A DNA stretch of 64,000 bases from Spirochaetia bacterium (GCA_965140585.1 OZ223264.1:839115-903114), one strand, 5' to 3'; shown: positions 4,893 to 39,707, counted from the first letter of the stretch. Translations and numbers: made by a program. Notes: generated by a model not told the origin, from the letters alone.

Positions 4893-4921
4893 TCCGGTGC
4901 TAAGTTATAAGGAGTTATCAA

Positions 4922-18031: not shown

Positions 18032-18434
18032 ATCCTGTTATTGATAAGGGGCTGACTTAATAATCGCAGGATCATGGAACCTCTGTGATATTTTTCTCCC
18101 AAAGAATTTGAAATGATGTATTATGAACAGGAAGAAAGTCTGGCTGTAAGTGCCGGACTCAAATAAAACCGTCTCCGGGATTCTCGGGGCGGTTCAATTG
18201 CGTTTCTTTTGAATTTCGCGTCATACCGACGTCTCTTTTTCTCACTAATAGTTAATATCTCATTCTATTTGAATTTGGTCTTAACTACACTCCGGAGAAT
18301 CGAGGCAGGAGCAACCTCAACTTATAATACCAATTTAAATGTTTAGAATTGTGAAAAATCATATACTGTATAACTTCACATGGACTTTCCTCATTATGAT
18401 ATTATATGTAAGTTATTCATAGTCATAAAATTTA

Positions 18435-19623
18435 GGACGCCTCTAAAAACTAAAGGAATTTCAAAAGATTCAAAATCTGATATTCTATTACTTTGGGAGG
18501 AATAAATGTCAAAGCAGAAAGGTTTTTTCATAGAAGATTTAAGACTATCAGAATTATCACAGCACGGAGATCCCTTGCAGAGATTGAGTGCAATGATTCC
18601 ATGGGAAAACTTTCGGCATAAATTAAATCGTATCTTTGTAAAAGAAGCAAAAGGCCCTGGAGGAATACCTCCATACGATTATGTGATGATGTTTAAAATC
18701 CTCGTATTGCAGAGAATTTATAATCTATCCGATTCGCAAATGCAGTACCAGATCATGGATCGATTATCATTTATGAGATTTCTCGGTTTGAATCTTGATG
18801 ACAAAGTACCCGATGAAAAAACAATCTGGCACTTTAGAGAAGAACTTGTTGAATCAAGGAAACTTGAAATACTATTTGAACAGTTCAGGAATTATCTGAT
18901 AAAAGAAGGAATACTGCTTGAGTCGGGGACAATTGTCGATGCTTCTTTTGTTGAAGTACCAAAACAAAGAAATAATAAAGATGAAAATAAAGAGATAAAA
19001 GAGGGCGAAACTCCTAAAGAGTGGTCAGACAATAAATTAAGACAAAAAGATGTGGATGCAAGATGGGTAACAAAAGGCGGGCAACGCCATTATGGCTACA
19101 AAAATCACATAAAAATTTATCGTAAATCCAAGCTTATTAAAAATTATGTAGTAACCAGTGCTGCAGTTCATGACTCGCAAGTAATAGAAGGAATTTTAGA
19201 AGAAGCTGATTCGCATCATGAATTATATGCTGATAGTGCTTATTGCGGAGCTCCAATAAAAGAAATATTGTCGGAATTGAAAATTAGAAACCGGATACAT
19301 GAAAAAGGTTATCGAAATAGCCCGTTGACTGAGAAACAAAAAGAGCGGAATCGAAAAAAGTCGAAGACGCGGGCGAGAGTAGAACATGTATATGGATTTA
19401 TGGTTAATTCGATGCAAGGTGATTTTATCAGGTACATAGGTCAGAAAAGAGCTGAAGCAGTGATAGGATTAAGTAACCTTGTTTATAATATGATGAGGTA
19501 TATCTATATATGTCCTGCTTGACGGTGGGATGATTGAATGAAGGCTGTATCGGCTGGCTGGTACAATGATAAAAAGGCTGCAGATGTTTTATGCAGCATA
19601 GCTGAAGGTTTTTAGAGGCGTCC
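18435..19623 (+). mobile_element. IS5-family insertion sequence, copy A
   Basis: 1189 bp. Perfect 16-bp terminal IRs GGACGCCTCTAAAAAC (18435-18450) and GTTTTTAGAGGCGTCC (19608-19623). TTA direct repeats at 18432-18434 and 19624-19626. Confidence 0.9.
18506..19522 (+). CDS. IS5-family DDE transposase
   Basis: 338 aa. InsH-type N-terminal domain (PPYDYVMMFKILVLQRIYNLSDSQ). Candidate DDE residues in IVDASF, YADSAY and VEHVYGF. Confidence 0.9.
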   Translation: MSKQKGFFIEDLRLSELSQHGDPLQRLSAMIPWENFRHKLNRIFVKEAKGPGGIPPYDYVMMFKILVLQRIYNLSDSQMQYQIMDRLSFMRFLGLNLDDKVPDEKTIWHFREELVESRKLEILFEQFRNYLIKEGILLESGTIVDASFVEVPKQRNNKDENKEIKEGETPKEWSDNKLRQKDVDARWVTKGGQRHYGYKNHIKIYRKSKLIKNYVVTSAAVHDSQVIEGILEEADSHHELYADSAYCGAPIKEILSELKIRNRIHEKGYRNSPLTEKQKERNRKKSKTRARVEHVYGFMVNSMQGDFIRYIGQKRAEAVIGLSNLVYNMMRYIYICPA

Positions 19624-19627
19624 TTAA

Positions 19628-19646
19628 GTTATAGGCAATAAGCGCT
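19628..19646. repeat. Left arm of the inverted repeat flanking the GFA gene
   Basis: GTTATAGGCAATAAGCGCT. The 13-nt core GGCAATAAGCGCT is the perfect reverse complement of 20175-20187. Confidence 0.8.
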
Positions 19647-20288: not shown

Positions 20289-21372
20289 GTCAAACCAGGA
20301 CATGGGTAACGATTTAACTTCAAGACATAGGTAACACTTAGCAGGGAATAATTCGTAAAATTCTTCTAAGGAGGATTTTAGAAATGCCCTGGAAGGAGAC
20401 TTATGTTATGGAACAGAGAAAAATGTTTGTACTTGAAGCAATGGATCCTCTTTGCAATTTTACTAGGCTTTGCAGCAAATACGGGATTTCAACTAAAACC
20501 GGATATAAATGGAAAAGCCGATTTATCCAGGAAGGGTTTGTTGGTTTATACGATCAATCAAGAAGACCAGATAATTCCCTTACACAAATATCTGAAGATG
20601 TAATGCTTGAGATAATTAGATTAAAGATCAAAAGGAAACATTGGGGACCAAAGAAGATAAGAGAAGTTTTTAAAAAGAATAACCCACAAGAAACTATTCC
20701 ATGTACAACCAGTGTTGAAAGGATTTTAAGAAAAGCTGGTTTAGTTGAGAAAAGAAAACGGAGAAGAACTGGAAAAGGTGTTCGAATACAGGATTCAGCA
20801 TTAGCAAAGAAGCCCAATGATGTGTGGACGGTTGATTTCAAGGGGTGGTGGTATACCCATGATAAAGAGAAAGTAAATCCATTAACCGTAAGAGATGATT
20901 ATTCAAAATACATTTTATGCATAAGAGCTTTAAGAAAAGGCGATACTCCATCAGTAAAAGCGGAATTTGAAATATGGAGAAAATAGTACAACAATGAAAG
21001 ACCGCATGAATCACTGGGGATGAAAACTCCATCAATGGTGTATACAGAATCGGATGAAAAGTATGTTGAAGTGATTGAAGAATTAGAATACCCAGGCAAT
21101 TTTCGGATAAGAATGGTAAATGATAGGGGCTTTATAAGCATAAAAAAAAGAATGTTCTTCATAGGAAATCCATTTTCAGGTTATTATATAGGAATAAGAC
21201 CACAGCCAGATGGTCAACAAAATGTTTGGTTTGGGAATTATTATTTAGGATATCTTGATATAGATACAAGTCTACTGAAGCCTGAACATGTGGTGAGATT
21301 TGAAGAAGGTAATCTTAAAAAACCGTTACCTATGTCTTGAAGGTGTTTTGTTACCCATGTCCTGAAGTTGGA
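20289..21372 (+). mobile_element. Degenerate IS481-family element with an internal deletion
   Basis: Terminal IRs of about 45 bp: 20289-20336 versus the reverse complement of 21325-21372, with shared cores CAGGACATGGGTAAC and CTTCAAGACATAGGTAAC. 7-bp direct repeat CCCGATT at 20282-20288 and 21373-21379. Confidence 0.8.
20384..21340 (+). pseudogene. IS481-type transposase (rve integrase core), disrupted
   Basis: ORF 20384-20986 holds the HTH region and the first catalytic Asp region (WTVDFKG), then stops. YNNERPHESLGMKTP follows within about 15 codons in another frame. About 80 aa are therefore missing, including the second Asp and the Glu. Confidence 0.8.
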
Positions 21373-22123: not shown

Positions 22124-22745
22124 GTGTCCGAAAAATGGATTTTTCCGTTTACCCTTGCCGAAGCAGTCCAGGCTCTTTATGTTACACAGCCGGCCCTTAC
22201 CCATGCTATACGGAAACTTGAAGACCAGCTTGAGACAAGGATATGGGCTAAAGACGGCAGGAAAATAAGGCTGACGCAAAGTGGAGTGTTGCTTGAGCTG
22301 GCCGGACGAGTTCTGCCGCAGATGAAATACACTGAATTTCTTATAAAACAGATATTAGCCGGTAAAAGGGGACTCCTGCGAATCGGGATGGAATGTCATC
22401 CCTATTATAAATGGCTTCAGTATGTGCTTACCCCGTTTTTAAAGAACTGGCCCTATGTTGAGGTGGAGCTAAAACAACAGTTCCAGTTTAGCGGAGTTAA
22501 GGCTTTGATGCGTTATGAAGTCGATATATTGATCACACCGGATCCGTATAAAAGCAGCTCCCTCGAGTATGTTCCGGTTTTTGATTACAAACAGGTACTA
22601 GCGGTATCAAAAGAGCACAAGCTCGCCGGCCTGAGGGGGGCTGTCGGATTGGCTGATTAAAGAATACAGAAAGACTCTTCCGTTGACGTCAATAAAACTG
22701 AACAAGACTGGTATCTGCAAAAGTATACATATCGGTGCAAGGTAA
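22124..22745 (+). pseudogene. LysR-family (MetR-like) regulator, truncated at both ends and frameshifted
   Basis: The HTH remnant LYVTQPALTHAIRKLEDQL lacks about the first 10-15 aa. The substrate domain ends at aa 178, against about 300 in intact family members. A further C-terminal-like stretch (LTSIKLNKTGICKSIHIGAR) lies in another frame. Confidence 0.65.
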
Positions 22746-27286: not shown

Positions 27287-27502
27287 ATTTAATTAAAGTA
27301 ATTTATCAGTGTATTAAAAAATAGATTTGCAACTGCTGAGAGTTGTCATACAATATCTATATTTTTTGCTGTACGCCTGCCTGGACATGCTATTTTGATT
27401 TTAACCGCTAATATATGAAAAACATATTTCGAAAATGAGTCAATAATGGTGAAATAAGATGGGTTTTAGTCTAAATAATGATAAAAAAACCTTAAAAAAT
27501 GA

Positions 27503-27569
27503 AATGGCTATTGCGAAATTAGAAAACTCGTGTTTTAATATTAATAAATAGGAATGGCCATTTCGAAAT
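27503..27569. promoter_or_regulatory. Repeated 17-nt operator-like motif upstream of lyase copy 1
   Basis: AATGGCTATTGCGAAAT (27503-27519) and AATGGCCATTTCGAAAT (27553-27569), 50 bp apart. The second contains the 10-bp palindrome ATTTCGAAAT. A related TTTCGAAA lies at 27427-27434. Confidence 0.45.
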
Positions 27570-28500
27570 ACTAAGGAGTGAATATCGTGACAAAGAAAAA
27601 GCCAGAAGGCATTTTTATCCCAATGGTGACTCCATTCAATGCATCTGATGAATCAATAGATTTTTCAGGTCTGAAGGAAGTGACTGAGTTTCTTGTAAAA
27701 AACGGAGTCGACGGGGTAATCCCCTCCGGAAGTACCGGCGAGTTTGTCGCAATGACAAAAGAAGAGCAGATGAAGGTCAATGCAGCGGTATGTGAATATG
27801 CAGCCGGAAGGATGAAGGTGTTCTGTTCAACAGGCGCTTACCGGACTGCTGATACAATTGAAATGTCACAGAGTGCAGAAGCTGCCGGAGCGGATGGAGT
27901 AATGATAGTAACACCATGGTACATGGCGCCTAACGAGGAAGAGCTTTATGACCACTACAAAGCGATCAGGAAATCGATATCGATACCGGTAATGGTCTAT
28001 CATAATCCGTACTATTCAACCTGTCTGATGACAGACGAGTTTATGGCCCGACTTTATAACGACGGATTGATTGATGCAGTGAAGGAAAGACAGGCTGATG
28101 TCTACAGACAGCAGGATCTGAGAGCCTTGACCGATGACGGCTTCGGCATATTTTACGGATATGACATCTGTCCGGTAGAGAGTGTTTCGATGTGGGCCGA
28201 CGGCTGGGTATGCGGAACAGGAAACCTGTTTCCGAAAGAAAACAAGACTGTCTATGATCTTGCAAAGTCAAGGCAGATAGAAGAAGCCCAGAAATATCAT
28301 TTTGAGAAAATTAGGCCGTATCTTCCCCTGTTTACTGAAAGTACATCAAAGGGACTGCCTTGTCCGTGGTTATCAGTGATAAAGGAAGGCCTTAAGCTTA
28401 GGGGCGTTAATGCGGGAGTTGCAAGGAAACCTGTAATGGAGCTTCCGGATGACGTGATGGTTAAACTGAAAAAAGTTTTAAAGGAATACGGGCATCTTTA
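27545..28500 (+). repeat. 956-bp direct repeat, copy 1 (identical to 33964-34919)
   Basis: Every line I compared matched base for base at an offset of 6419. The sense ORF and two antisense ORF translations are also identical. Identity starts 42 nt upstream of the start codon and ends inside the stop codon. Confidence 0.9.
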
Positions 28501-28501
28501 G
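27587..28501 (+). CDS. DHDPS/N-acetylneuraminate-lyase family class I aldolase/lyase, copy 1
   Basis: PSGSTGEF, VYHNPYY and AVKERQAD (Schiff-base Lys region). AAGGAG RBS 8 nt upstream of GTG 27587; the ORF opens at GTG 27578. Confidence 0.85.
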   Translation: MTKKKPEGIFIPMVTPFNASDESIDFSGLKEVTEFLVKNGVDGVIPSGSTGEFVAMTKEEQMKVNAAVCEYAAGRMKVFCSTGAYRTADTIEMSQSAEAAGADGVMIVTPWYMAPNEEELYDHYKAIRKSISIPVMVYHNPYYSTCLMTDEFMARLYNDGLIDAVKERQADVYRQQDLRALTDDGFGIFYGYDICPVESVSMWADGWVCGTGNLFPKENKTVYDLAKSRQIEEAQKYHFEKIRPYLPLFTESTSKGLPCPWLSVIKEGLKLRGVNAGVARKPVMELPDDVMVKLKKVLKEYGHL

Positions 28502-28524
28502 AAGCAAATTAATATAAGGGGTGT

Positions 28525-29871
28525 ATGATGAAACTGAAAAAGGTAGATGTTTTGGTCGCAGGTGGAGGTACTGCTGGTGCTATCGCCGGTATAGCCGCTG
28601 CCAGAAATGGGGCGAATACCTTGATTGTAGACAGGCAAAGATGTCTGGGTGGACAGTTTACTGCAGGAATGCAGGGCGCCTGGGTAGGATTTAGTGATAA
28701 AGAAAAGCTGATTGTCAAAGGAATTGCGTGGGAAATAAGAAATATTCTCAAGGACAAAAACGCAATAGTTGAAGATGATCCTGACACCGATGTCTGTTTT
28801 CTGTATGACACAGAGGTTGCTAAAGTAGTTCTGGATGAGATGGCTTACAGAGAACCGAATCTAAGCACTTATCTTAATGCTTCTATTCTGGATGTTGTTA
28901 TGGATGGTGATCGAGTAGCCGGCCTGATTGTTCTTTCAGAAATGGAACAGATGGAAATCCGGGCAGATGTTGTAATTGACTGCACTGGAGATGCTGCGGT
29001 TTCTGCGGAGGCTGATGTTCCATTTGAAATAAGACCTAAAAAAGATATACAGCCTATGACACTTATTGGGAAAATGGGCGGTGTGGATATGGATCGTGTT
29101 AAGCAGTATTACCGTGAAAACCCTCCTGTTCACGATGCTTCTGAACCGCCGGCCTGGCATGATTTCAAGACTTTTCCCGGATTCATGCATTTCGGACTGA
29201 AGGATGAACTTGAAAATGTAGAACTTCCGCCTGAACTTGAATACCTGCGTAACTGGCTTGCCATTTTTACATCTACACCAAATCCTGATGAGGTAACGAT
29301 TAACTGTTCCGGAGCTATCGAGGCACATAGTACTGCCGGATTTGAAGACCGGGCAGCCCAGGAATATATTTCACAGAAATGCCTGTATGATGTAGCTGAA
29401 GCCCTTAGGTTATATGTTCCCGGTTTTGAAAAATCATACATCTCTTCAATCGCGGGATTACTGGGAATCCGGGAAAGCCGGCGAATTATAGGTGATTACA
29501 AGGTAACCCTAGATGATTTTCTTGCAGCAAAAGAATTCCCTGACAGTATAGGAAGAGGTGCGATGCCGGCTGGAGCGCATACTGCCGATGGTGTGACAAT
29601 GAATGTATATGATTTGGCACCGGGGAGTTCGATGACTATTCCCTACAGCTGTATGATCCCAAAAGGAAAAGATGGACTTCTTGTTGCAGGACGCTGTGTT
29701 TCATATGAGGCACCAGTCGCTAACTGCATAAGGTGTATGCCTCAGTGCATGGTTATGGGAGAAGCCGCAGGGACCGCGGCTGCCATTGCAGTTAAAAACG
29801 GCACCACACCAAGAAATGTTGATATAAAACTGCTGCAGGAAACATTGATAAAGCAGCAGGTGATTATTTGA
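28525..29871 (+). CDS. FAD-dependent oxidoreductase (FAD_oxidored-type, substrate unknown)
   Basis: 448 aa. VDVLVAGGGTAGAIAGIAAARNGANTLIVDR dinucleotide-binding motif and VIDCTGDAAV. Confidence 0.75.
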   Translation: MMKLKKVDVLVAGGGTAGAIAGIAAARNGANTLIVDRQRCLGGQFTAGMQGAWVGFSDKEKLIVKGIAWEIRNILKDKNAIVEDDPDTDVCFLYDTEVAKVVLDEMAYREPNLSTYLNASILDVVMDGDRVAGLIVLSEMEQMEIRADVVIDCTGDAAVSAEADVPFEIRPKKDIQPMTLIGKMGGVDMDRVKQYYRENPPVHDASEPPAWHDFKTFPGFMHFGLKDELENVELPPELEYLRNWLAIFTSTPNPDEVTINCSGAIEAHSTAGFEDRAAQEYISQKCLYDVAEALRLYVPGFEKSYISSIAGLLGIRESRRIIGDYKVTLDDFLAAKEFPDSIGRGAMPAGAHTADGVTMNVYDLAPGSSMTIPYSCMIPKGKDGLLVAGRCVSYEAPVANCIRCMPQCMVMGEAAGTAAAIAVKNGTTPRNVDIKLLQETLIKQQVII

Positions 29872-29903
29872 TTGAGGTGTGAATTAGATTAGGAGGAACT
29901 ATC

Positions 29904-31241
29904 ATGAAGAATAAAGTGGTTTTTATACTGATTATAGCATTGGTATTAACAACAGTATCGGTATTTGCTGGCGGAAAGCAGGAAATTGAGGAAACTGAAA
30001 AACTAATAATATGGACAAACCTCACTGCTGAAGCTCAAACTGTAGTTTTAACAAAACAATTTAATGAAATCGCAGAAGAGATGGGTATAGATATTGAAAT
30101 GGTTACAGTCTCTTTCGGTGATATGTATACAAAGCTTGCAACTGCAATGCAGTCCGGTGATGTTCCTGATATCATGCATACCAATGAAGGCGGCGTTGCA
30201 TATCTTTATGCCAATGATATGCTGACGCCAATGAATGATGTAATTAAAAATATAGGTAAGGATGATTTTGTTAAATCCTACCTGGATATACTTACAGTTG
30301 ATGGTACCATTTGGGGAGTTCCTGACTGGGCATTACATACCTCTGTCTGGTATAGAAAAGATCTGTTTAAAGAGTATGGTTTAAGCATTCCACGTAATTG
30401 GGATGAATTGATGAAGACTGCAAAGTCATTGAATATTGATAGTGATTCAGATGGTAATATTGATACCTATGGTTTTGCCGTATCAATGTCGGCGGTAAAT
30501 GTTGCTGCGCAGGTTTATTATGAATTTCTGTATTCAGCAGGTGTTTATACATTTGACCCTGTAACCGGTGAATATATTTTTGGAAATAATAAAAAGAAAG
30601 CTACAGAGGTTCTTCAGTATATGATCGACCTCTATCATGCTGCTTCACCACCTTCGAGTATTGAATGGGCATGGAGTGAATTCAGAAATGCGCTTGTAGA
30701 GGGTAATGTTGCAATGACTCAGGATATGGGTGCGGTAATTCTCATGGCGCAGAATAATAATCCTGAATTGGTAGGTAATTTAGGATGTTTTGATTTACCA
30801 GGTATTAATGGTGATAAAAAAGCATCCTTTGGAGGTTCATATAATTTTGTTGCCGGAAACCAGGGCGGCGAGGATAAAGCTGAACTTTCTCAAAAATTTA
30901 TTGAAAAACTCTATACACCTGAACGTGCTGCGGAAAGGGCCCTTTCCCGACCAATGTTTGCATTTCCTTCAATGTATTCTGCTTTCGATCTGTATAAAAA
31001 AGCTGATTCTGTTTCATTGTATCAGGATGAAGTTGATGTAATTTATGATGCATTCCAGAATTCCACATGGTACAGGTACGGCATGGAAGCCGGGTTGAAT
31101 CAGATGGCATCCCAGATTGAGTCTACTACATTTTTTGGAGAAGCTATTCAAAGTGCAGCTCTTGGACAATGGACTGCTGAAAAAGCGGTTGATTATATTG
31201 ATCAGATGCTTCAGGAGCAGCTTGCAGTTATTGGTTATTAA
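29904..31241 (+). CDS. Carbohydrate ABC transporter substrate-binding protein (family 1)
   Basis: 445 aa. N-terminal signal peptide (no lipobox Cys). Typical sugar-SBP length and composition. AGGAGG RBS. Confidence 0.8.
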   Translation: MKNKVVFILIIALVLTTVSVFAGGKQEIEETEKLIIWTNLTAEAQTVVLTKQFNEIAEEMGIDIEMVTVSFGDMYTKLATAMQSGDVPDIMHTNEGGVAYLYANDMLTPMNDVIKNIGKDDFVKSYLDILTVDGTIWGVPDWALHTSVWYRKDLFKEYGLSIPRNWDELMKTAKSLNIDSDSDGNIDTYGFAVSMSAVNVAAQVYYEFLYSAGVYTFDPVTGEYIFGNNKKKATEVLQYMIDLYHAASPPSSIEWAWSEFRNALVEGNVAMTQDMGAVILMAQNNNPELVGNLGCFDLPGINGDKKASFGGSYNFVAGNQGGEDKAELSQKFIEKLYTPERAAERALSRPMFAFPSMYSAFDLYKKADSVSLYQDEVDVIYDAFQNSTWYRYGMEAGLNQMASQIESTTFFGEAIQSAALGQWTAEKAVDYIDQMLQEQLAVIGY

Positions 31242-31378
31242 GTCCGTACCGGGCTGATTTAACCATCAGCTGAAGTGATTCTGTATATGCATGGCGGCAT
31301 TATCGGGTTCATTTGCACATGTTGGATGAATCCGGATAATGCTGTTGTAGTCATAACAGGTTTTGAAGGGAGAGCGAT

Positions 31379-32317
31379 ATGGCAACAGGTGAGATGTCTT
31401 ATTTAATAAAGTCATCAAAACAGAAAATTTCAATTAGAATGAATTTCTATAAAAGAAGACAGTTACTTGGGATTTTATTTATTCTGCCCACAATCTTATT
31501 TTTGGCTGTATTTATTTTATATCCGGTGCTGAGTAATTTAGCCCTCAGTTTTACCGATGCATACCTGATTAAAAAAAACTATAATTTTATTGGATTAAAA
31601 AATTACATAAGTCTTATTACAAACCCCATGTTCCTGAAATATTCATGGAATACATTGTTATGGACTTTCTTCTCGGTTGTCGGTCAACTGGTACTTGGTC
31701 TTGGACTTGCTCTTCTGATTAATCAGAAGCTAAGCGGCGGTCCATTTATAAGAGGATTTCTTTTAATTCCTTATGTAGTTCCGGCTGTAGCTCTTGCCCT
31801 GATAACAAAATGGATTTTCAATGGAGATTACGGAATTGCGAGTAAATGGCTGCAGAGTCTGGGGGTTATTGACTATAAACAGTCTCCGCTTGCTCTTCCT
31901 GGCGGAGCAATGGCTGTAATTGTGATTGTGAATATTTGGCGGTCATATCCTTTTCCAATGCTTATATACTGGGCTGCTTTAAAAGGGATAGATAAAGAGC
32001 TTTATGAAGCCGCAGATGTAGACGGCGCAAACAGATTTCAATCATTCTGGTATATTACGCTCCCTCAACTTAAGAATACGACAATAGTGCTTGCTATTCT
32101 CCGTATAGTCTGGACGGCAACGTATTTTGATTTAATATGGATGGTTACGGGCGGAGGTCCTGCAGGAACAACAACCCATCTTCCGATTATGATTTATCAA
32201 TCCTCATTCGGAACTTTCAGGATCGGCTATGCCTCTGCTATATCCATGATGCTCGGCATTGTGCTGTTTGTCTGTATCATCTACTACGTAAGAAAATCCG
32301 GAGATTTTGCGGATTGA
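31379..32317 (+). CDS. Carbohydrate ABC transporter permease (MalF/UgpA-like)
   Basis: Six TM segments. EAA loop LYEAADVDGANRFQSFWYITLP. The start may be the internal ATG at 31439. Confidence 0.85.
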   Translation: MATGEMSYLIKSSKQKISIRMNFYKRRQLLGILFILPTILFLAVFILYPVLSNLALSFTDAYLIKKNYNFIGLKNYISLITNPMFLKYSWNTLLWTFFSVVGQLVLGLGLALLINQKLSGGPFIRGFLLIPYVVPAVALALITKWIFNGDYGIASKWLQSLGVIDYKQSPLALPGGAMAVIVIVNIWRSYPFPMLIYWAALKGIDKELYEAADVDGANRFQSFWYITLPQLKNTTIVLAILRIVWTATYFDLIWMVTGGGPAGTTTHLPIMIYQSSFGTFRIGYASAISMMLGIVLFVCIIYYVRKSGDFAD

Positions 32318-33179
32318 GGAAAATAAAATGAATTCTACAATTAAATTAGAGAATCAGAATCTGCTGCGCAAGTGTATCCTGGGTGCTGTATCGGCATTCT
32401 TTATATGTGTGGTAGGATTCCCCTTATTATGGATGGTTTTAAGTTCATTAAAGCCGGCCACAGAGCTGTTTAAATCTCCTCCTACAATCTTTCCGGAAAC
32501 GATCACTTTTGAATGGTACCGAAGTGCATTCAGTGATAAAACCGTAGTGAGATATTTTGTAAACAGTTTTATTGTTGCAACCGGTACAACAGCAATAGTG
32601 ATTATAATGGCAACATTCGGAGCTTATGGATTAACCAGGTTTCGATTTTTCGGCAGAAAGGCAATAACTGTAGCTGTGCTTTCCGCTTATTGTATTCCTC
32701 CTATAATGCTGATGATTCCATTATACCGGATTATTGCAAAGATGCATCTGAATGCATCACTGTTTGGTGTTATTATTGGTCACTCAACTGTTACATTTCC
32801 ATTTGCTGTCTGGCTTCTTATTTCCTTTTTCAGGAGTATTCCGCGGGACATAGAAGAAGCTGCACTTGTGAATGGTGCTTCGGATTTGACCATTTTTTTT
32901 AGAATAATTTTACCTCTATGTGTGCCTGGTATTCTTAGTACCGGGATTCTTGTGTTTATACTCTCATGGAATGAATACCTGCTTGCAAGCGTATTGATTT
33001 CCCAGGATTCCATGAAGACTCTGACTGTAGGAATTGCCAACTATATCAGTTCAACAGAAATAAACTGGGGTGTGATAATGGCTCTAGGTACTGCAACTAC
33101 GGTTCCCATTGTTTTAATGTTTACAGCCATTCAGAAATATTTTGTTGAAGGCCTTACTGCAGGGGCTGTAAAAGGGTAA
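32307..33179 (+). CDS. Carbohydrate ABC transporter permease (MalG/UgpE-like)
   Basis: EAA loop IEEAALVNGASDLTIFFRIILP. The start is probably ATG 32328. Confidence 0.85.
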   Translation: MRIEENKMNSTIKLENQNLLRKCILGAVSAFFICVVGFPLLWMVLSSLKPATELFKSPPTIFPETITFEWYRSAFSDKTVVRYFVNSFIVATGTTAIVIIMATFGAYGLTRFRFFGRKAITVAVLSAYCIPPIMLMIPLYRIIAKMHLNASLFGVIIGHSTVTFPFAVWLLISFFRSIPRDIEEAALVNGASDLTIFFRIILPLCVPGILSTGILVFILSWNEYLLASVLISQDSMKTLTVGIANYISSTEINWGVIMALGTATTVPIVLMFTAIQKYFVEGLTAGAVKG

Positions 33180-33191
33180 GCGGGTAGAGTA

Positions 33192-33842
33192 ATGAATATT
33201 TATTCGATTGAAAGTGATGAATTTGCCGTTTATGGTGAAATCCTTGAAGGCATAGACACAAGTGAGTTGTGTTTGGTGATGAAGGAAATAAAAATGCCTG
33301 ATAGGGGAGTATTATATCGCCCCGAGGTGAATGAGCTTGAATCCTGCGCAGTTTTCAATGATTTTCGTGATCTTTTTTTTGGGGGGCTTGAAATCCAAAT
33401 TGGTATGTGCTGGGGCTATAATTCAGTATTGAATTGTCTGGAATATCATCGCAGCAGTGAGATCATTGTAGGTTCCGATGATTTTATTCTCCTGCTTGCA
33501 AGACGTGATGAGCTGGCAGCTAATTCACTGAATACCTCCAAAGTAAAAGGATTCCTGGTTCCTTCAGGTTCTGCTGTTGAGCTGTACTCTTCTACCCTCC
33601 ATTATGCGCCCTGTCATTCTGTTGCTATGCAAGGATTCAGGACTGCTGTTATCCTTCCAAAAGGAACGAATACTGTGCAGCCGTCTTTCAGCCCTGATAG
33701 TATCGGTCAATTCCATCCGTCTGCCATAAATAAGTGGGTGCTGGCACATCCGGAATCTCCGGAGGCTTCTGGTGGTGCAATAATTGGTCTTTTAGGAAAA
33801 AATATTGATATTGGATGCAATAGTCTTGTATATGTGGAATAG
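33192..33842 (+). CDS. Hypothetical protein (DUF4867-like / ureidoglycolate-lyase-fold by recollection)
   Basis: 216-aa ORF separated by a 12-nt gap from the permease stop. No motif that I can assign with certainty. Confidence 0.45.
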   Translation: MNIYSIESDEFAVYGEILEGIDTSELCLVMKEIKMPDRGVLYRPEVNELESCAVFNDFRDLFFGGLEIQIGMCWGYNSVLNCLEYHRSSEIIVGSDDFILLLARRDELAANSLNTSKVKGFLVPSGSAVELYSSTLHYAPCHSVAMQGFRTAVILPKGTNTVQPSFSPDSIGQFHPSAINKWVLAHPESPEASGGAIIGLLGKNIDIGCNSLVYVE

Positions 33843-33922
33843 GCATTCCGTATAATGAAGGTGAAATTGCATTTTTATGTTTCTTTTTTCAAAAATGTAA
33901 TAAATATACTCTCAAAAAACGA

Positions 33923-33988
33923 AATGGGCATTGTAAAAAGTAAAGAGTTGTGTTTAAATTATCTAAATAGGAATGGCCATTTCGAAAT
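33923..33988. promoter_or_regulatory. Operator-like motif pair upstream of lyase copy 2
   Basis: Degenerate AATGGGCATTGTAAAAA (33923-33939) and exact AATGGCCATTTCGAAAT (33972-33988). Confidence 0.4.
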
Positions 33989-34919
33989 ACTAAGGAGTGA
34001 ATATCGTGACAAAGAAAAAGCCAGAAGGCATTTTTATCCCAATGGTGACTCCATTCAATGCATCTGATGAATCAATAGATTTTTCAGGTCTGAAGGAAGT
34101 GACTGAGTTTCTTGTAAAAAACGGAGTCGACGGGGTAATCCCCTCCGGAAGTACCGGCGAGTTTGTCGCAATGACAAAAGAAGAGCAGATGAAGGTCAAT
34201 GCAGCGGTATGTGAATATGCAGCCGGAAGGATGAAGGTGTTCTGTTCAACAGGCGCTTACCGGACTGCTGATACAATTGAAATGTCACAGAGTGCAGAAG
34301 CTGCCGGAGCGGATGGAGTAATGATAGTAACACCATGGTACATGGCGCCTAACGAGGAAGAGCTTTATGACCACTACAAAGCGATCAGGAAATCGATATC
34401 GATACCGGTAATGGTCTATCATAATCCGTACTATTCAACCTGTCTGATGACAGACGAGTTTATGGCCCGACTTTATAACGACGGATTGATTGATGCAGTG
34501 AAGGAAAGACAGGCTGATGTCTACAGACAGCAGGATCTGAGAGCCTTGACCGATGACGGCTTCGGCATATTTTACGGATATGACATCTGTCCGGTAGAGA
34601 GTGTTTCGATGTGGGCCGACGGCTGGGTATGCGGAACAGGAAACCTGTTTCCGAAAGAAAACAAGACTGTCTATGATCTTGCAAAGTCAAGGCAGATAGA
34701 AGAAGCCCAGAAATATCATTTTGAGAAAATTAGGCCGTATCTTCCCCTGTTTACTGAAAGTACATCAAAGGGACTGCCTTGTCCGTGGTTATCAGTGATA
34801 AAGGAAGGCCTTAAGCTTAGGGGCGTTAATGCGGGAGTTGCAAGGAAACCTGTAATGGAGCTTCCGGATGACGTGATGGTTAAACTGAAAAAAGTTTTAA
34901 AGGAATACGGGCATCTTTA
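33964..34919 (+). repeat. 956-bp direct repeat, copy 2
   Basis: See copy 1. The offset is exactly 6419 bp. Confidence 0.9.
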
Positions 34920-34920
34920 A
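34006..34920 (+). CDS. DHDPS/N-acetylneuraminate-lyase family class I aldolase/lyase, copy 2
   Basis: Protein identical to copy 1. Only the stop codon differs (TAA versus TAG). Confidence 0.85.
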   Translation: MTKKKPEGIFIPMVTPFNASDESIDFSGLKEVTEFLVKNGVDGVIPSGSTGEFVAMTKEEQMKVNAAVCEYAAGRMKVFCSTGAYRTADTIEMSQSAEAAGADGVMIVTPWYMAPNEEELYDHYKAIRKSISIPVMVYHNPYYSTCLMTDEFMARLYNDGLIDAVKERQADVYRQQDLRALTDDGFGIFYGYDICPVESVSMWADGWVCGTGNLFPKENKTVYDLAKSRQIEEAQKYHFEKIRPYLPLFTESTSKGLPCPWLSVIKEGLKLRGVNAGVARKPVMELPDDVMVKLKKVLKEYGHL

Positions 34921-34937: not shown

Positions 34938-34973
34938 GGGAAAGGTTCGGACAGACTGAACCTCTCACTTTTT
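34938..34973 (+). terminator. Rho-independent terminator
   Basis: GGGAAAGGTTC...GAACCTCTC imperfect stem followed by a T-run (34969-34973). Confidence 0.65.
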
Positions 34974-35073
34974 CTAATTCTGATTAAAACTGTTAATATA
35001 CTGTTGGTTATTGACTAGCTATGTTAATATGAATTAGAAATAGAAAAGGGTATTTCATATTTATTATGTATAA

Positions 35074-35859
35074 ATGGAGGATTCATTTTTGGAAGAGAAA
35101 TCAAAAGAAAATGTCAAAGCATTGGAAAAGGCTCTTATTATTTTGGAAATGATAAAGGAATCAAAAATTCCTCTGGGAGTAAATGAAATATCCAGACAAT
35201 GCAAGATAAATCTGACGACAGCTTTCAGGATCCTTCAAACATTTAAAAGTAAGGGGTGGGTCTATCAGAATTCAGAAGATAAGTACATTATCGGGATGAA
35301 AGTTTCATTTGTTACTGATAGAAACAATTTCTACCTTGCTCTTAAAGAAATAGCATATTACACAATGGCAAGATTAAGTGCAAAAGTATCTCAAGCCATG
35401 AATTTGATAGTGAGAGAGAATGAAAAGTGCTTTATTCTGCAGCAGTCCCGGACGGATAAAATTGTAGATTATGTTCCTCCTATAGGTACAGTTCTTCCTA
35501 TCTATGCCAGTGCCGGCGGAAAAGTACTGCTGGCTGAACTTCCGGAAATGCTTCTTGAAGAGATTCTGGATATGCTTGATTTTAAACCGCTTACGAAATA
35601 CACAATTATCAGGCGATCAGTTTTTCTTGAAGAGCTTCAGAAAGTTAAAACACTTGGCTATGCAATTGATGAGCATGAATCCCAGGAGGAAGGGTTTTGT
35701 CTTGCTGTTCCGGTAAGAAACCGGGAGAATGAAATAATAGCAGCTTTATCTTTTTCCGGATTTATTGGAACCTTGAATGAAACAGAAATAAAGGATTGCT
35801 ATTTAACTCTTAAAGAAGCTTCCGAAGAGATAACAGGAAATCTTTACAAGTACCAGTAA
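35074..35859 (+). CDS. IclR family transcriptional regulator
   Basis: 261 aa. N-terminal winged HTH (LEKALIILEMIKESKIPLGVNEISRQCKINLTTAFRILQTF) and a C-terminal IclR effector domain. Confidence 0.85.
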   Translation: MEDSFLEEKSKENVKALEKALIILEMIKESKIPLGVNEISRQCKINLTTAFRILQTFKSKGWVYQNSEDKYIIGMKVSFVTDRNNFYLALKEIAYYTMARLSAKVSQAMNLIVRENEKCFILQQSRTDKIVDYVPPIGTVLPIYASAGGKVLLAELPEMLLEEILDMLDFKPLTKYTIIRRSVFLEELQKVKTLGYAIDEHESQEEGFCLAVPVRNRENEIIAALSFSGFIGTLNETEIKDCYLTLKEASEEITGNLYKYQ

Positions 35860-35958: not shown

Positions 35959-36879
35959 ATGAGATACACAGTAATAGGCACCGGAGCAATAGGCTCCTAC
36001 TACGGCGGACGCTTACAGCAGTCCGGATTAATGGTTAATTACCTGGCCAGAAGTGACTATGAACATCTTAAGAGTTCAGGCATGGTCATTGAGTCAATAA
36101 ACGGTGATTTTAAATTAGAAGATATAGCAGCTTTTAAGAAGGCTGAAGATATTCCTGAAACCGACGTTGTCCTGGTTTCTTTGAAAACAACAGCAAATTC
36201 AAAGCTTCCTGATCTGATAAGGCCGCTGGTACACCGCGGTACAGTTATTCTTGTGCTTCAAAATGGTCTTGATATGGAAGAGGAGCTTCGGACGGCCTTT
36301 CCAGAGGCCAGGGTTATGGGCGGAATGTGTTTTATATGTTCATTCAGGAAGGCTCCTGGGCATATTATGCATGTTGATAAGGGCTCAATACTGGCTGCAC
36401 CTCTGGATCCTGCTGACCTGCCGATTCTGAAACAGATTGAGACTGATTTTATTGCAGCCGGAATTGAGTTTAAAAGCAGTGAAGATCTGAGAACCTCCCG
36501 ATGGAGTAAACTGCTTTGGAATATTCCGTTTAACGGGCTTTCCGTTATTCTGAATGCCACTACAAGCGATATTCTTTCCAGCCGTCAGGGCGAAACAATA
36601 GTTAGAAAGCTAATGTCGGAGGTTGTTCAGGGTGCCAGGGCTGACGGCTGCAGTTTGAATGAAAGCCAGATTGAGCCGATGATTGATTTTACAAGGGTAA
36701 TGACTCCGTATAAGCCGAGTATGAAACTTGATTTTGAATCAGGGAGACCGATGGAAATTGATTACATGTTCCGGAAACCGCTTAAGGCTGCAGAAAAAAA
36801 AGGTATTGAGCTGCCGTCTATTACAATGATTGCGGATCAGCTTGAAATTCTGGAAGGGCTAAATAATCAAGATTGCTGA
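35959..36879 (+). CDS. panE: 2-dehydropantoate 2-reductase family (ApbA/PanE) oxidoreductase
   Basis: 306 aa. N-terminal IGTGAIGSYYGGRL Rossmann motif, LKTTA motif and C-terminal ApbA_C-like region. Confidence 0.75.
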   Translation: MRYTVIGTGAIGSYYGGRLQQSGLMVNYLARSDYEHLKSSGMVIESINGDFKLEDIAAFKKAEDIPETDVVLVSLKTTANSKLPDLIRPLVHRGTVILVLQNGLDMEEELRTAFPEARVMGGMCFICSFRKAPGHIMHVDKGSILAAPLDPADLPILKQIETDFIAAGIEFKSSEDLRTSRWSKLLWNIPFNGLSVILNATTSDILSSRQGETIVRKLMSEVVQGARADGCSLNESQIEPMIDFTRVMTPYKPSMKLDFESGRPMEIDYMFRKPLKAAEKKGIELPSITMIADQLEILEGLNNQDC

Positions 36880-36908: not shown

Positions 36909-36989
36909 ATGGTGAGTGAAAAGAGCAGTCCCGCACCCTTTGTTAAATGGGAAGGCGGAAAGCGGCAGCTGTATAAAGAGCTACCTTAA
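36909..36989 (+). pseudogene. 26-codon N-terminal fragment of a Dam-type methyltransferase
   Basis: Translates to MVSEKSSPAPFVKWEGGKRQLYKELP then a stop. PFVKWEGGKRQL is the N-terminal Dam-family signature. It lies in a different frame from the intact gene 32 nt downstream, which has its own VVKWVGGKRQL. Confidence 0.6.
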
Positions 36990-37020
36990 TTTTTTTTACG
37001 ATATAGAGTACTATTTCACG

Positions 37021-37863
37021 GTGACATATAAAAGAAACAGACTTGTTGCTCCGGTTGTGAAATGGGTCGGTGGAAAACGTCAGTTAATTTCAGAAATTTC
37101 TAAGTATTACCCAAAATTCTCTGGAACATATTTCGAACCATTTTTAGGTGGTGCGGCTGTTTTATTCCATTTCCAGCCAAAAGTAGCTATCGTTAATGAT
37201 AATAATGCAGAATTAGTGAACTTATACAATGTAATAAAGAATAATCCGGAACTCTTGATATCGGATCTGAAGAAGCACATCAATGATAAAGAGTATTTTT
37301 ATGAGATTAGATCACTTGATCGGGATAAAGAAAAGTATGGTCGGCTGACCCCAATTGAGAGAGCCTCCAGAATATTATTCCTTAATAAAACATGTTATAA
37401 CGGTCTTTTTCGGGTAAATAGTTCAGGTGAGTTTAATACGCCTTTTGGAAGATATAAAAATCCGAATATCGTAAATGAAATAACCATTAATGCTGTTAGT
37501 AGATATTTCAATAGTGTGGAAATCTCTATTCTAAATGTAGATTTTGAAAATGCGGTTAAGAATGCAAAAAAAGGGGATTTTGTATATTTTGATCCACCAT
37601 ACGACCCCATTTCTGATAGTTCAAATTTCACTGGTTACACAAAAATTGGATTTGATAGAGCAGAACAACTAAGGTTGAAATACCTGTGTGATGACTTAAA
37701 AAAAAGAGATGTGAAATTTTTGTTATCCAATTCAGCCACAGATTTTATATGGGAACTTTATAAAGACTATAGTAGAACGAAGATAACTGCTACACGTGCT
37801 ATCAATTCAAAAGCTGAAGGCAGAGGTGTTGTTGAAGAGGTTCTTGTGAAAAATTATGACTAA
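37021..37863 (+). CDS. Dam-like (alpha-class) N6-adenine DNA methyltransferase
   Basis: VKWVGGKRQL, FEPFLGGAAV (FxGxG) and FVYFDPPY (DPPY). GTG 37021 gives the typical 280 aa; the ORF is open from 36916. AT-rich gene. Confidence 0.85.
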   Translation: MTYKRNRLVAPVVKWVGGKRQLISEISKYYPKFSGTYFEPFLGGAAVLFHFQPKVAIVNDNNAELVNLYNVIKNNPELLISDLKKHINDKEYFYEIRSLDRDKEKYGRLTPIERASRILFLNKTCYNGLFRVNSSGEFNTPFGRYKNPNIVNEITINAVSRYFNSVEISILNVDFENAVKNAKKGDFVYFDPPYDPISDSSNFTGYTKIGFDRAEQLRLKYLCDDLKKRDVKFLLSNSATDFIWELYKDYSRTKITATRAINSKAEGRGVVEEVLVKNYD

Positions 37864-37885: not shown

Positions 37886-38086
37886 GTGTGGATTAAGATT
37901 TTCGATAAATACAGTATAAATAAAAGATTTAAAGAAGATGGACACTATTTTATTTCAGCTGATCAGATAAATCAGTATAGGGAAGCACGCTTGATGACAA
38001 AATTTGATCATTATAGAAACCTTCCAAATCTTTTAAAAGAGTAAAAAGTTAATATTTTACCGATTTCAAGAGGTTTTTATATAATA
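37886..38086 (+). pseudogene. Fragment of a probable restriction endonuclease gene (nonsense codon, then cut by the IS)
   Basis: GTG-initiated frame MWIKIFDKYS...REARLMTKFDHYRNLPNLLKE, an in-frame TAA (38042-38044), then KVNILPISRGFYII running into the IS5 end at 38087. The RLMTKFD...LP...ILPISRG.Y pattern resembles type II REase N-termini as I recall them. Confidence 0.45.
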
Positions 38087-39277
38087 GGCGCTTCTAAAAA
38101 CTAAAGGAAATTCAATGAATTCAAAAATCTGATATGCTTTTACTTTTGGATGAATAAATGTCAAAGCAGAAAGGTTTTTTCATAGAAGATTTAAAGCTAT
38201 CAGAATTATCACAGCACGGAGATCCCTTGCAGAGATTGAGTGCAATGATTCCATGGGAAAACTTTCGGCATAAATTAAATCGTATCTTTGTAAAAGAAGC
38301 AAAAGGCCCTGGAGGAATACCTCCATACGATTATGTGATGATGTTTAAAATCCTCGTATTACAGAGAATTTATAATCTATCCGATTCGCAAATGCAGTAC
38401 CAGATCATGGATCGATTATCATTTATGAGATTTCTTGGTTTGAATCTTGATGACAAAGTACCCGATGAAAAAACAATCTGGCACTTTAGAGAAGAACTTG
38501 TTGAATCAAGGAAACTTGAAATACTATTTGAACAGTTCAGGAATTATCTGATAAAAGAAGGAATACTGCTTGAGTCGGGGACAATTGTCGATGCTTCTTT
38601 TGTTGAAGTACCAAAACAAAGAAATAATAAAGACGAAAATAAAGAGATAAAAGAGGGCGAAACTCCTAAAGAGTGGTCAGACAATAAATTAAGACAAAAA
38701 GATGTGGATGCAAGATGGGTAACAAAAGGCGGGCAACGCCATTATGGCTACAAAAATCACATAAAAATTTATCGTAAATCCAAGCTTATTAACAATTATG
38801 TAGTAACCAGTGCTGCAGTTCATGACTCGCAAGTAATAGAAGAAATTTTAGAAGAATCTGATTCGCATCATGAATTATATGCTGATAGTGCTTATAGCGG
38901 AGCTCCAATAAAAGAAATATTGTCGGAATTGAAAATCAGGAACCGGATACATGAAAAAGGCTATCGAAATAGCCCGTTAACTAAGAAACAAAAAGAGCGG
39001 AATCGAAAAAAGTCGAAGACGCGGGCGAGAGTAGAACATGTATATGGATTTATGGTTAATTCGATGCAAGGTGATTTTATCAGGTACATAGGTCAGAAAA
39101 GAGCTGAAGCAGTGATAGGATTAAGTAACCTTGTTTATAATATGATGAGGTATATCCAGATATGTTCTGCATGAGCTGGGTAGATTGATGGATGAGGAAT
39201 GTATCGACATGCCGGTACAATGATAAAAAAGCTGATGATGTTTAATACAGCATAGCTGAAGGTTTTTAGAGGCGCCC
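38087..39277 (+). mobile_element. IS5-family insertion sequence, copy B
   Basis: 1191 bp, same orientation as copy A. Right IR GTTTTTAGAGGCGCCC (39262-39277); left IR is degenerate (GGCGCTTCTAAAAAC). Flanks are ATA and TTA, so there is no clean target duplication. Confidence 0.85.
38158..39174 (+). CDS. IS5-family DDE transposase
   Basis: 338 aa, with 8 substitutions relative to copy A. Confidence 0.9.
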   Translation: MSKQKGFFIEDLKLSELSQHGDPLQRLSAMIPWENFRHKLNRIFVKEAKGPGGIPPYDYVMMFKILVLQRIYNLSDSQMQYQIMDRLSFMRFLGLNLDDKVPDEKTIWHFREELVESRKLEILFEQFRNYLIKEGILLESGTIVDASFVEVPKQRNNKDENKEIKEGETPKEWSDNKLRQKDVDARWVTKGGQRHYGYKNHIKIYRKSKLINNYVVTSAAVHDSQVIEEILEESDSHHELYADSAYSGAPIKEILSELKIRNRIHEKGYRNSPLTKKQKERNRKKSKTRARVEHVYGFMVNSMQGDFIRYIGQKRAEAVIGLSNLVYNMMRYIQICSA

Positions 39278-39707
39278 TTAAGAAAAAGCCAATTCTTTAT
39301 GAATTCAACAACCACTATTACAGAGCCAGCTGATCTAATATGGAAAACTTGCGTCATTCCCATAGGCGAGGTATATCCTCATCTTGATGAAATCCAAAAT
39401 ATTTCATTTTTGACTTAGAAAAAGCTGATTATCAGATATCAACACCGGTCCAAAACTGTAGGAAGCACCATAAAGAGGCTTCATGATCGAGCTAATTTAA
39501 CTTTCGCATATTAAATTGTCAGTAAGGGATGCCAAAGATATTAAATGTATTAATGTGCACAAAGTACATTTCTTGCACAGGATAATGTGCGCTTCTTATA
39601 AAGCTTAAAAAGCAGATACAGTTTTTTATTCTGAATAATTAAAAAGCGTGTTAGGCTAATTACGGTTTTAAATTTTGTTGGATAAATATAAAACAGGAGC
39701 AAGAATA

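Follow-up and report, generated by a model that had tools for sequence, protein, structure and literature searches.

A repeated head gene in a predicted IclR-controlled operon of a Spirochaetia bacterium: an older duplication probably homogenized by gene conversion

We analyzed a 64,000-nucleotide stretch of DNA (the window) from a Spirochaetia bacterium (GCA_965140585.1 OZ223264.1:839115-903114), in which a gene of the DHDPS/NAL family occurs twice: at the head of an operon for a flavoprotein and a transporter, and again at the far end of the same operon, before a gene for an IclR-family regulator. The two copies are identical over 956 bp, but the promoter regions just upstream of them have diverged. 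We consider it probable, at roughly two chances in three, that this is a derived two-copy arrangement of the first gene in an IclR-controlled catabolic operon, and that an older duplication has been homogenized by gene conversion.

The identical tract and the diverged promoters

Direct string comparison showed that positions 27545-28500 and 33964-34919 agree at 956 of 956 positions at an offset of 6419, and that the very next base differs at both ends. The preliminary description of this DNA had reported the same extent and offset, which the full comparison bore out with zero mismatches. The 5' end of the repeat lies 42 nucleotides upstream of the GTG start codons at 27587 and 34006, and its 3' end is the second base of the stop codon, which is TAG in copy 1 and TAA in copy 2; both ends had been placed correctly before. 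The GTG start is backed by AAGGAG at 27573-27578 and by 304-amino-acid homologues that start with MTKKKPEG. Each copy, on the plus strand, therefore contains the proximal operator (at 33970-33983 in copy 2), the 5' untranslated region (UTR), the ribosome-binding site and the coding sequence up to the second stop-codon base. The genes themselves extend from 27587 to 28501 (copy 1, at the operon head; 304 amino acids, PF00701) and from 34006 to 34920 (copy 2), and encode identical proteins. The segment between the repeat copies, 28501-33963, is 5463 bp long. Outside the repeat, the next 50-500 nucleotides show an ungapped identity of 27-43% on the upstream side and 23-29% on the downstream side. 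When the whole window was searched for repeats, this pair and one 1.2-kb IS5-family pair were the only long ones.

A gapped local alignment of the approximately 67 nucleotides upstream of each tract scored 39, against 20.1 ± 2.8 for shuffled sequences, and none of 1000 shuffles reached that score. The similarity noticed here earlier is thus real, although the identity is 45/67, or about 67%, rather than the 60% first estimated. Compared with the corresponding promoter of L040, the related locus closest in architecture, copy 1 is identical at 46/68 positions and copy 2 at 50/68. The step from 22 differences in 67 positions to none in 956 is sharp (Fisher p = 2e-28).

Within these regions, we placed operator-like sites with the pattern GRAATN4ATTYC; the underlying consensus, GGAAT-N4-ATTCC, was derived here by comparison alone. 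Upstream of copy 1, on the plus strand, lie site 1 (GAAAAACATATTTC, 27417-27430, -170, one mismatch), site 2 (GAAATGGCTATTGC, 27501-27514, -86), which overlaps the putative -35 box, and a putative promoter for the operon at 27511-27539 (TTGCGA, 17-nucleotide spacer, and the extended -10 box TGT-TTTAAT), assigned by homology with relatives. The proximal site GGAATGGCCATTTC (27551-27564 in copy 1, -36) matches the pattern exactly and lies inside the identical tract. Upstream of copy 2, on the same strand, site 1 (GGAATAGGCATTCC, 33836-33849, -170) is perfect and overlaps the stop codon of the preceding DUF4867 gene, and site 2 (GAAATGGGCATTGT) lies with a putative promoter (TTGTAA, 17-nucleotide spacer, TGT-TTAAAT) at 33921-33959. 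The middle site, at -86, was placed by alignment and departs from the pattern by up to one mismatch in copy 1 and up to two in copy 2; GAAATGGCTATTGC of copy 1 aligns with GAAATGGGTATTGC of L040 and with GAAATGGGCATTGT of copy 2. L040 shares the three-site layout of both copies. The shared GAAATGGnnATTG motif pointed out in the preliminary description, at 27501-27513 and 33921-33933, falls within site 2. The palindrome ATTTCGAAAT, which it also singled out, does lie inside the identical tract, but more plausibly represents the right half of the 14-bp operator GGAATGGCCATTTC together with its flank; the decamer by itself is not enriched in the window. A generic sigma-70 scan performed no better than shuffles.

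Among relatives, a GRAATN4ATTYC site is found upstream of the DHDPS-family gene in 23/23 operon loci, at -34 to -67 before the start codon in 21 of them and at -83 and -113 in the other two, and usually directly after a TTGACA-17-TATAAT-like promoter. Its density in these upstream regions is 6.2 hits/kb, compared with 0.32 across the loci, an approximately 20-fold enrichment. The site is absent from all four loci in which an enzyme of the same clade lies beside a BNR_2 gene under LacI or AraC regulators. In the window, a further operator-like site, GAAAAGGGTATTTC (35043-35056, plus strand), precedes the start codon of the IclR gene by 31 nucleotides, and L040 carries GGGAACAGCCATTTC at the matching position. 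This arrangement suggests repression of both promoters, and probably of the regulator's own gene, by the IclR protein.

Because the promoters are homologous, the duplicated unit would once have reached at least from position -170 as far as the stop codon (about 1.09 kb), and its promoter part would since have diverged by a third. The absence of differences in the tract beside 22/67 just upstream marks a recombination boundary, which argues for gene conversion rather than one recent duplication of 956 bp. On its 5' side, the tract begins past the -10 box but ahead of the proximal operator, and the lack of similarity between the downstream flanks means that its 3' end is the end of homology. Selection on the coding sequence does not account for the identity: compared with the enzyme gene on a 2.35-kb contig from another run (L033), the window gene differs at 74 synonymous and 4 nonsynonymous codons, and this many synonymous differences show that the coding sequence is not frozen by selection.

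Of the two origins offered in the preliminary description, an older duplication homogenized by conversion is therefore favored over a very recent duplication, with which promoters of 67% identity beside 0/956 sit poorly. A single very recent event that copied exactly the 956 bp of operator, UTR and gene, with no gene conversion, would account for the zero differences in the tract and agrees with the single-copy state of relatives, which makes the second copy derived. Yet copy 2 is preceded by a homologous operon promoter that has diverged by 33% and keeps three sites at the same spacing, and a fresh 956-bp insertion would not land behind such a ready-made promoter. In addition, no mobile-element ends or target duplications were seen flanking the tract. 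We regard such an event as quite improbable.

According to the conversion model, the ancestral operon would have consisted of a promoter with operators, the DHDPS-family gene, a PF12831 flavoprotein gene, genes for a binding protein and two permeases, and an IclR gene. As relatives suggest, a unit of at least about 1.09 kb, made up of the three-operator promoter region and the DHDPS-family gene, would have been duplicated to the far end of this operon, where it now sits after an added DUF4867 gene and before the IclR gene. The promoter regions would then have diverged to 67% identity. Finally, as the sharp boundary suggests, the tract from just past the -10 box to the stop codon would have been homogenized recently by RecA-type gene conversion, limited on the 3' side by the end of homology and on the 5' side at 27545/33964.

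Related loci and the origin of the second copy

Relatives were collected by a metagenome scan with the flavoprotein and by look-ups of its closest database homologues. About 25 distinct loci carry the module of DHDPS-family gene, PF12831 flavoprotein, binding protein and two permeases, and in all of them the DHDPS-family gene is single and stands at the operon head. A second copy was found in none of the at least 14 loci that have at least 2.3 kb of sequence past the second permease. An IclR gene adjoins the module in most loci with flanking sequence, usually divergently upstream and sometimes downstream.

The collinearity of L040 with the window, at 74.5% nucleotide identity, begins 88 nucleotides upstream of the start codon and extends through the second permease gene. 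Its proteins are 87% (DHDPS-family enzyme), 80% (flavoprotein), 84% (binding protein), 80% and 85% (permeases) and 75% (IclR) identical to those of the window. In L040, the second permease gene is followed by a 106-nucleotide spacer and then by the IclR gene on the same strand; relative to this, the window has an extra stretch of about 1.87 kb, consisting of the DUF4867 gene, a promoter region, copy 2 and a terminator. Since the permease gene leads straight to the IclR gene in L040 and relatives have a single copy, the two-copy state, and with it the second copy, appears to be derived. The comparison with related strains that had been suggested earlier was thus made with related loci, and with L040 and the other loci, about 25 in all, it indicates that one copy is ancestral. 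The DUF4867 gene is absent from the corresponding position in all relatives, and by the same comparison appears to be a derived, lineage-specific addition to the operon.

Alternatively, copy 2 with its promoter, and perhaps the DUF4867 gene, might have been acquired horizontally from a lineage with the same type of operon and homogenized later. The copy-2 promoter is indeed no closer to that of copy 1 (45/67) than to that of L040 (50/68), the DUF4867 gene has no close relative at this position and its next homologue is only 69% identical, and the operon lies in a stretch of low guanine-cytosine (GC) content with two IS5-family copies, an IS481 remnant and two DNA methylase genes. Nevertheless, the promoter sequences compared are short and close to saturation, no locus resembling a donor, with a DUF4867 gene followed by a DHDPS-family gene, was found, and the last step would still require gene conversion, so that this is a variant of the duplication-and-conversion account rather than a true alternative to it. 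Acquisition by transfer seems to us unlikely.

The L033 contig encodes an enzyme that is 99% identical at the amino acid level and 91% at the nucleotide level to that of the window, joined to a flavoprotein gene whose product is 95% identical; by these values, it appears to represent a sister lineage with the same head-of-operon junction. This contig starts 4 nucleotides inside the equivalent of the left repeat boundary and yet runs unbroken past the 3' end of the repeat into the flavoprotein gene. Its start point may be a branch, in which case a second copy may be present there too.

The closest homologues of the enzyme (88-90% amino acid identity; L003, L004, L034 and L035, gene at approximately 10001-10924 or 4774-5697) are encoded outside flavoprotein operons. 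There, the enzyme gene lies directly upstream of a gene for a cytoplasmic-looking BNR_2 (sialidase-fold) protein, with LacI or AraC regulators, and some of these loci have glycoside hydrolase genes (GH123, GH35/42) nearby. The enzyme family falls into two clades, with 69-75% identity between them, and either can head a flavoprotein operon. The window enzyme shares 88-90% identity with the BNR_2-linked clade, compared with 71-75% for the enzymes encoded in the closest flavoprotein operons. We considered displacement of the head gene by a foreign member of the BNR_2-linked clade, and dropped it as a special event because in L040 a member of that clade heads the same type of operon elsewhere. Across contigs with very different gene neighborhoods, the module enzyme is unusually conserved (61-90% identity).

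In four loci with the closest flavoproteins (L036-L039, approximately 84% amino acid identity), a TauE/SafE-type sulfite-exporter-family gene lies beside the IclR gene and a MalK-type ATPase gene follows the second permease gene; the window has neither gene at these places.

Contig support, read depth and recombination between the copies

For genome users, perfect repeats of about 1 kb are where short-read assemblies deserve the least trust. Independent data came from Logan contigs of a public run (X1), which contain 99% of the region's sampled words. These contigs are built from 31-letter words and drop variants. The left-flank contig ends at 27574 (depth 14.9), a contig of 956 bp covers exactly 27545-28500 (depth 26.9), a 5523-bp cassette contig covers 28471-33993 (depth 13.9), and the right-flank contig starts at 34890 (depth 9.5). 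Both junctions of copy 2 are present. In a close-up of the graph, three contigs meet exactly at each repeat end, and the repeat has only four links: from the left flank and from the cassette into the repeat, and from the repeat into the cassette and into the right flank. The cassette contig begins and ends with 30 nucleotides of repeat, which means that all cassette copies in the sample have a repeat on either side. The depth of the repeat is about twice that of its neighbors and close to the sum of its two entries, left flank plus cassette (28.8).

With only two entries and two exits, collapse onto a single copy or a mis-join to foreign DNA is unlikely, and the earlier insistence on excluding assembly problems was well placed. 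An artefact would mean either one genomic copy with a mis-join, or similar copies collapsed to one consensus that was written twice. It would draw on the fact that these are short-read contigs only, in which the tract forms one graph node and variants are dropped, and on the uneven depth and an alternative left flank near 18.06-18.12 kb, which point to several strains. Against it, the cassette cannot be placed without a repeat copy on each side, and the given assembly derives from a 946-kb contig and keeps the two IS5-family copies of the window distinct at 95.6% identity, which indicates that it separates diverged repeats. We judge an artefact unlikely as well. A few single-nucleotide differences between the copies may be hidden by bubble popping or by one graph node having been written twice, which would leave the biology unchanged.

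Contig depths in run X1 covered the window from 5641 to 54800: 7.9 at 5.6-18.1 kb, about 14-15 at 18.1-34 kb, 9.5 at 34.9-38.2 kb, 8.5 at 39.1-43.1 kb and about 5 beyond 43.1 kb. An alternative left flank and a T>A variant are present at 18057-18124; the sample thus holds more than one variant of the region and is strain-heterogeneous. No alternative right flank was found in the run X1 contigs, even at 80% likeness, and no back-joint was found. A circular or tandem form that joins the repeat end back to 18.1 kb, considered as a source of the excess depth, was rejected, as the sole apparent joint was the end of IS5 copy 2 matching copy 1.

Several points weigh against the duplication-and-conversion account. 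The copies described as exactly identical may in truth be nearly identical, and the support comes from contigs, with no single read or read pair spanning a repeat copy. Depth is unbalanced between the left flank (14.9) and the right flank (9.5), the region at 18.1-34 kb has approximately 1.6-1.8 times the depth of the outer flanks, and flow through the repeat is uneven (28.8 in, 23.4 out). Because unbalanced depth signifies a heterogeneous sample, the path through both copies is unproven for any one molecule: a mixture of chromosomes with left flank, repeat and right flank, together with repeat-cassette circles, is possible, as are deletion or amplification variants present as a minority. Some of the resemblance between the promoters could stem from a regulatory constraint common to both instead of shared ancestry, and a duplication that ends exactly at the stop codon is neat and has no explanation. 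Binding by IclR, promoter activity and enzyme function are predicted only.

Duplication-amplification units are well known, as tandem amplifications flanked by insertion sequences or rrn operons and as the amplifiable units of Streptomyces. The present arrangement resembles them in that perfect direct repeats of about 1 kb surround a cassette of a few kilobases, so that unequal crossing-over can delete or amplify it; unlike in those units, the repeats are a functional gene and not a mobile element. If crossing-over between the repeats deleted the cassette, the importer, flavoprotein and DUF4867 genes would be lost, and what remained would be promoter 1 with the enzyme gene, the terminator and the IclR gene; amplification would multiply the cassette. 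The preliminary description went further and proposed that RecA-dependent excision or amplification would act as a built-in copy-number switch. In a selected form of such a switch, the repeats would have been kept because reversible, RecA-dependent amplification or excision of the cassette is advantageous.

As 956-bp perfect direct repeats 5.46 kb apart, the copies would be good substrates for recombination, and the cassette depth of 13.9, between flanks at 14.9 and 9.5, is compatible with minority variants. The cassette gave no depth signal of its own, and no copy-number variation of it was detected in the run X1 contig depths; nor was there a cassette-specific junction contig or depth step, bearing in mind that contigs of 31-letter words are blind to junctions across a 956-bp repeat. 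Furthermore, the arrangement is absent from the approximately 25 related loci, so that selection for the layout is not indicated; deletion would be irreversible, and gene dosage of the repeated enzyme would be a simpler benefit. The switch is thus a physical possibility, and we think it very unlikely that the repeats were selected as a recombination device by which the cassette is amplified or shed as a circle while the operator-bearing enzyme gene always stays behind. If this were the case, the excess depth at 18.1-34 kb would be a trace of such heterogeneity. We instead regard recombination between the copies, with deletion or amplification of the 5.46-kb cassette, as a side-effect of the duplication.

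Gene content, proposed function and surroundings

The repeated enzyme matches PF00701 with 203 bits (cut-off 22.1) over profile positions 2-288 of 289. It scores below the curated cut-offs for dapA (TIGR00674, 187.3 bits against 206.15), and for nanA (TIGR00683, 114.8 against 382; NF003164/PRK04147, 138.8 against 281), and also below the NCBIfam cut-offs for KdgD and HpaI. A BLASTP alignment with an E. coli DapA sequence, on which the residue numbering rests, showed that the Schiff-base lysine (K161; AVKER/GIKEA) and the catalytic tyrosine (Y133; VYHNP/LYNVP) are kept, and that tyrosine occupies the position of Arg138, which binds aspartate semialdehyde in DapA (PYYST versus PSRTG). The enzyme is therefore a member of the same PF00701 fold family as NanA and DapA, sharing their aligned lysine and tyrosine, but differs in its partners, a PF12831 flavoprotein here or a BNR_2 protein in the sister clade. 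By these criteria, it is not a true DapA and is predicted to be a class-I aldolase or a dehydratase-type enzyme. Given scores under the curated cut-offs and tyrosine at the Arg138 position, the term lyase used for it earlier is a family-level guess only; at that level, the earlier gene labels agree with the Pfam matches. A PDB sequence search with the enzyme gave generic DapA/NAL matches only.

The remaining genes of the operon lie on the plus strand. The second encodes a flavin adenine dinucleotide (FAD)-dependent oxidoreductase (28525-29871; PF12831, 343.6 bits). The AlphaFold model of this flavoprotein has a pLDDT of 88.6, and its best Foldseek matches are generic two-domain flavoenzymes with template-modeling scores of approximately 0.45-0.5; no informative relative was found by sequence among PDB structures, and the literature on PF12831 and on the gene combination yielded nothing informative. 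It is followed by genes for a substrate-binding protein of a carbohydrate-uptake type of ATP-binding cassette (ABC) transporter (29904-31241; SBP_bac_1) and for two ABC permeases (31379-32317 and 32307-33179; PF00528, BPD_transp_1, in both); the cluster has no ATPase gene.

The DUF4867 gene at 33192-33842 (PF16161, 230 bits) encodes a protein that matches PDB 9gyy with E = 1e-42. DUF4867 proteins are cupin metalloproteins with a solved structure and a role called "enigmatic", for which ketose ring-opening or a mutarotase-type activity has been suggested (PMC11968277). The nearest homologues of the window protein are 69% and then at most 59% identical; a genome-collection scan with it returned a 38% relative only. 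Exact-protein look-ups with this protein, and with the DHDPS-family protein from either start, matched no record.

Copy 2, with its own putative promoter upstream and a terminator-like hairpin and T-run downstream (34943-34975, plus strand; AGGTTCGGACAGACTGAACCT followed by CTCACTTTTT), looks monocistronic from its sequence. The IclR-family regulator gene (35074-35859, plus strand; HTH_IclR and IclR_C) has its best NCBIfam similarity to PcaR/BhcR/KdgR, under their cut-offs, and a PanE/ApbA-type reductase is encoded at 35959-36879. As in IclR systems of the KdgR, PcaR/PobR and AllR types, a regulator with HTH_IclR and IclR_C domains adjoins a catabolic operon, a palindromic operator-like site lies at or just after the operon promoter, and another precedes the regulator's own gene, where it could allow autoregulation. 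Unlike in those systems, the regulator gene is downstream of the operon and not divergent from it, and binding of the regulator to the sites is a prediction.

Because the proximal operator and ribosome-binding site are shared by both copies, a single IclR repressor should switch on the operon and the stand-alone copy together. Upon induction, both would be expressed, so that the dose of the Schiff-base aldolase or dehydratase-type enzyme would be approximately doubled relative to the transporter and flavoprotein, and enzyme supply would be freed from operon polarity. The substrate is probably a small carbohydrate-derived compound, which would be imported, oxidized or reduced by the flavoprotein, and then cleaved or dehydrated by the DHDPS-family enzyme. 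The TauE/SafE-type neighbors in related loci and the DUF4867 protein, known from sulfoquinovose clusters, give a weak hint of a possible sulfonated substrate.

Elsewhere in the window, the two direct 1.2-kb copies of the IS5-family element (18433-19639 and 38085-39293), which encode a 338-amino-acid DDE transposase and have the ends GGACGCCTCTAAAAAC and its complement, are 19.65 kb apart and enclose the whole operon region, a layout that resembles a composite transposon. IS5 copy 1 is apparently flanked by TTA on both sides, and the sides of copy 2 are mismatched. At 20296-21364, 40-nucleotide inverted repeats (88% complementary) surround a 1.07-kb remnant with a 200-amino-acid open reading frame (ORF) in which IS481-type HTH domains are followed by no more than the beginning of an integrase core, which makes this a truncated IS481-family element. 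Two DNA methylase genes lie in the low-GC stretch: a 616-amino-acid methyltransferase with N6_Mtase, Eco57I and TaqI_C domains (13642-15492, minus strand) and a 315-amino-acid Dam-type D12 methylase (36916-37863, plus strand) directly before IS5 copy 2. An ORF of 178 amino acids at 22124-22660 resembles a LysR-type regulator that is missing its N-terminal portion and ends prematurely, and probably represents the remains of a gene. An ORF of 515 amino acids at 16484-18031 has no Pfam match and a faint similarity to NCBIfam SftI, a sulfoquinovose isomerase (E = 1e-6; 27.8 bits against a cut-off of 700). No tRNA genes or Rfam families were found in the window, and a plasmid collection gave nothing above 35% identity.

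The tufA and tufB genes of Salmonella and E. coli are the textbook case of concerted evolution of duplicated genes by gene conversion. As in that case, the gene copies are identical or nearly so while their flanks diverge, identity stops where homology stops, and the mechanism would be RecA-dependent, non-reciprocal recombination. The tuf copies, however, are far apart, inverted and encode an essential housekeeping protein, whereas the copies described here are direct repeats, 6.4 kb apart, that flank the accessory catabolic operon to which they belong, and the tract includes an operator. As a case of concerted evolution, the locus is thus tidy but ordinary, and it adds a new instance to known kinds. 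On the account we favor, it would provide a clean, datable case of gene conversion inside one operon, in which the boundary between the -10 box and the operator would let operator, UTR and gene be homogenized together as the promoters drift. More useful than the repeat itself are two by-products of the analysis: an uncharacterized, widespread module of DHDPS-family enzyme, PF12831 flavoprotein, sugar-type importer and IclR regulator, present in hundreds of metagenome contigs, and the candidate GGAAT-N4-ATTCC operator that accompanies it.

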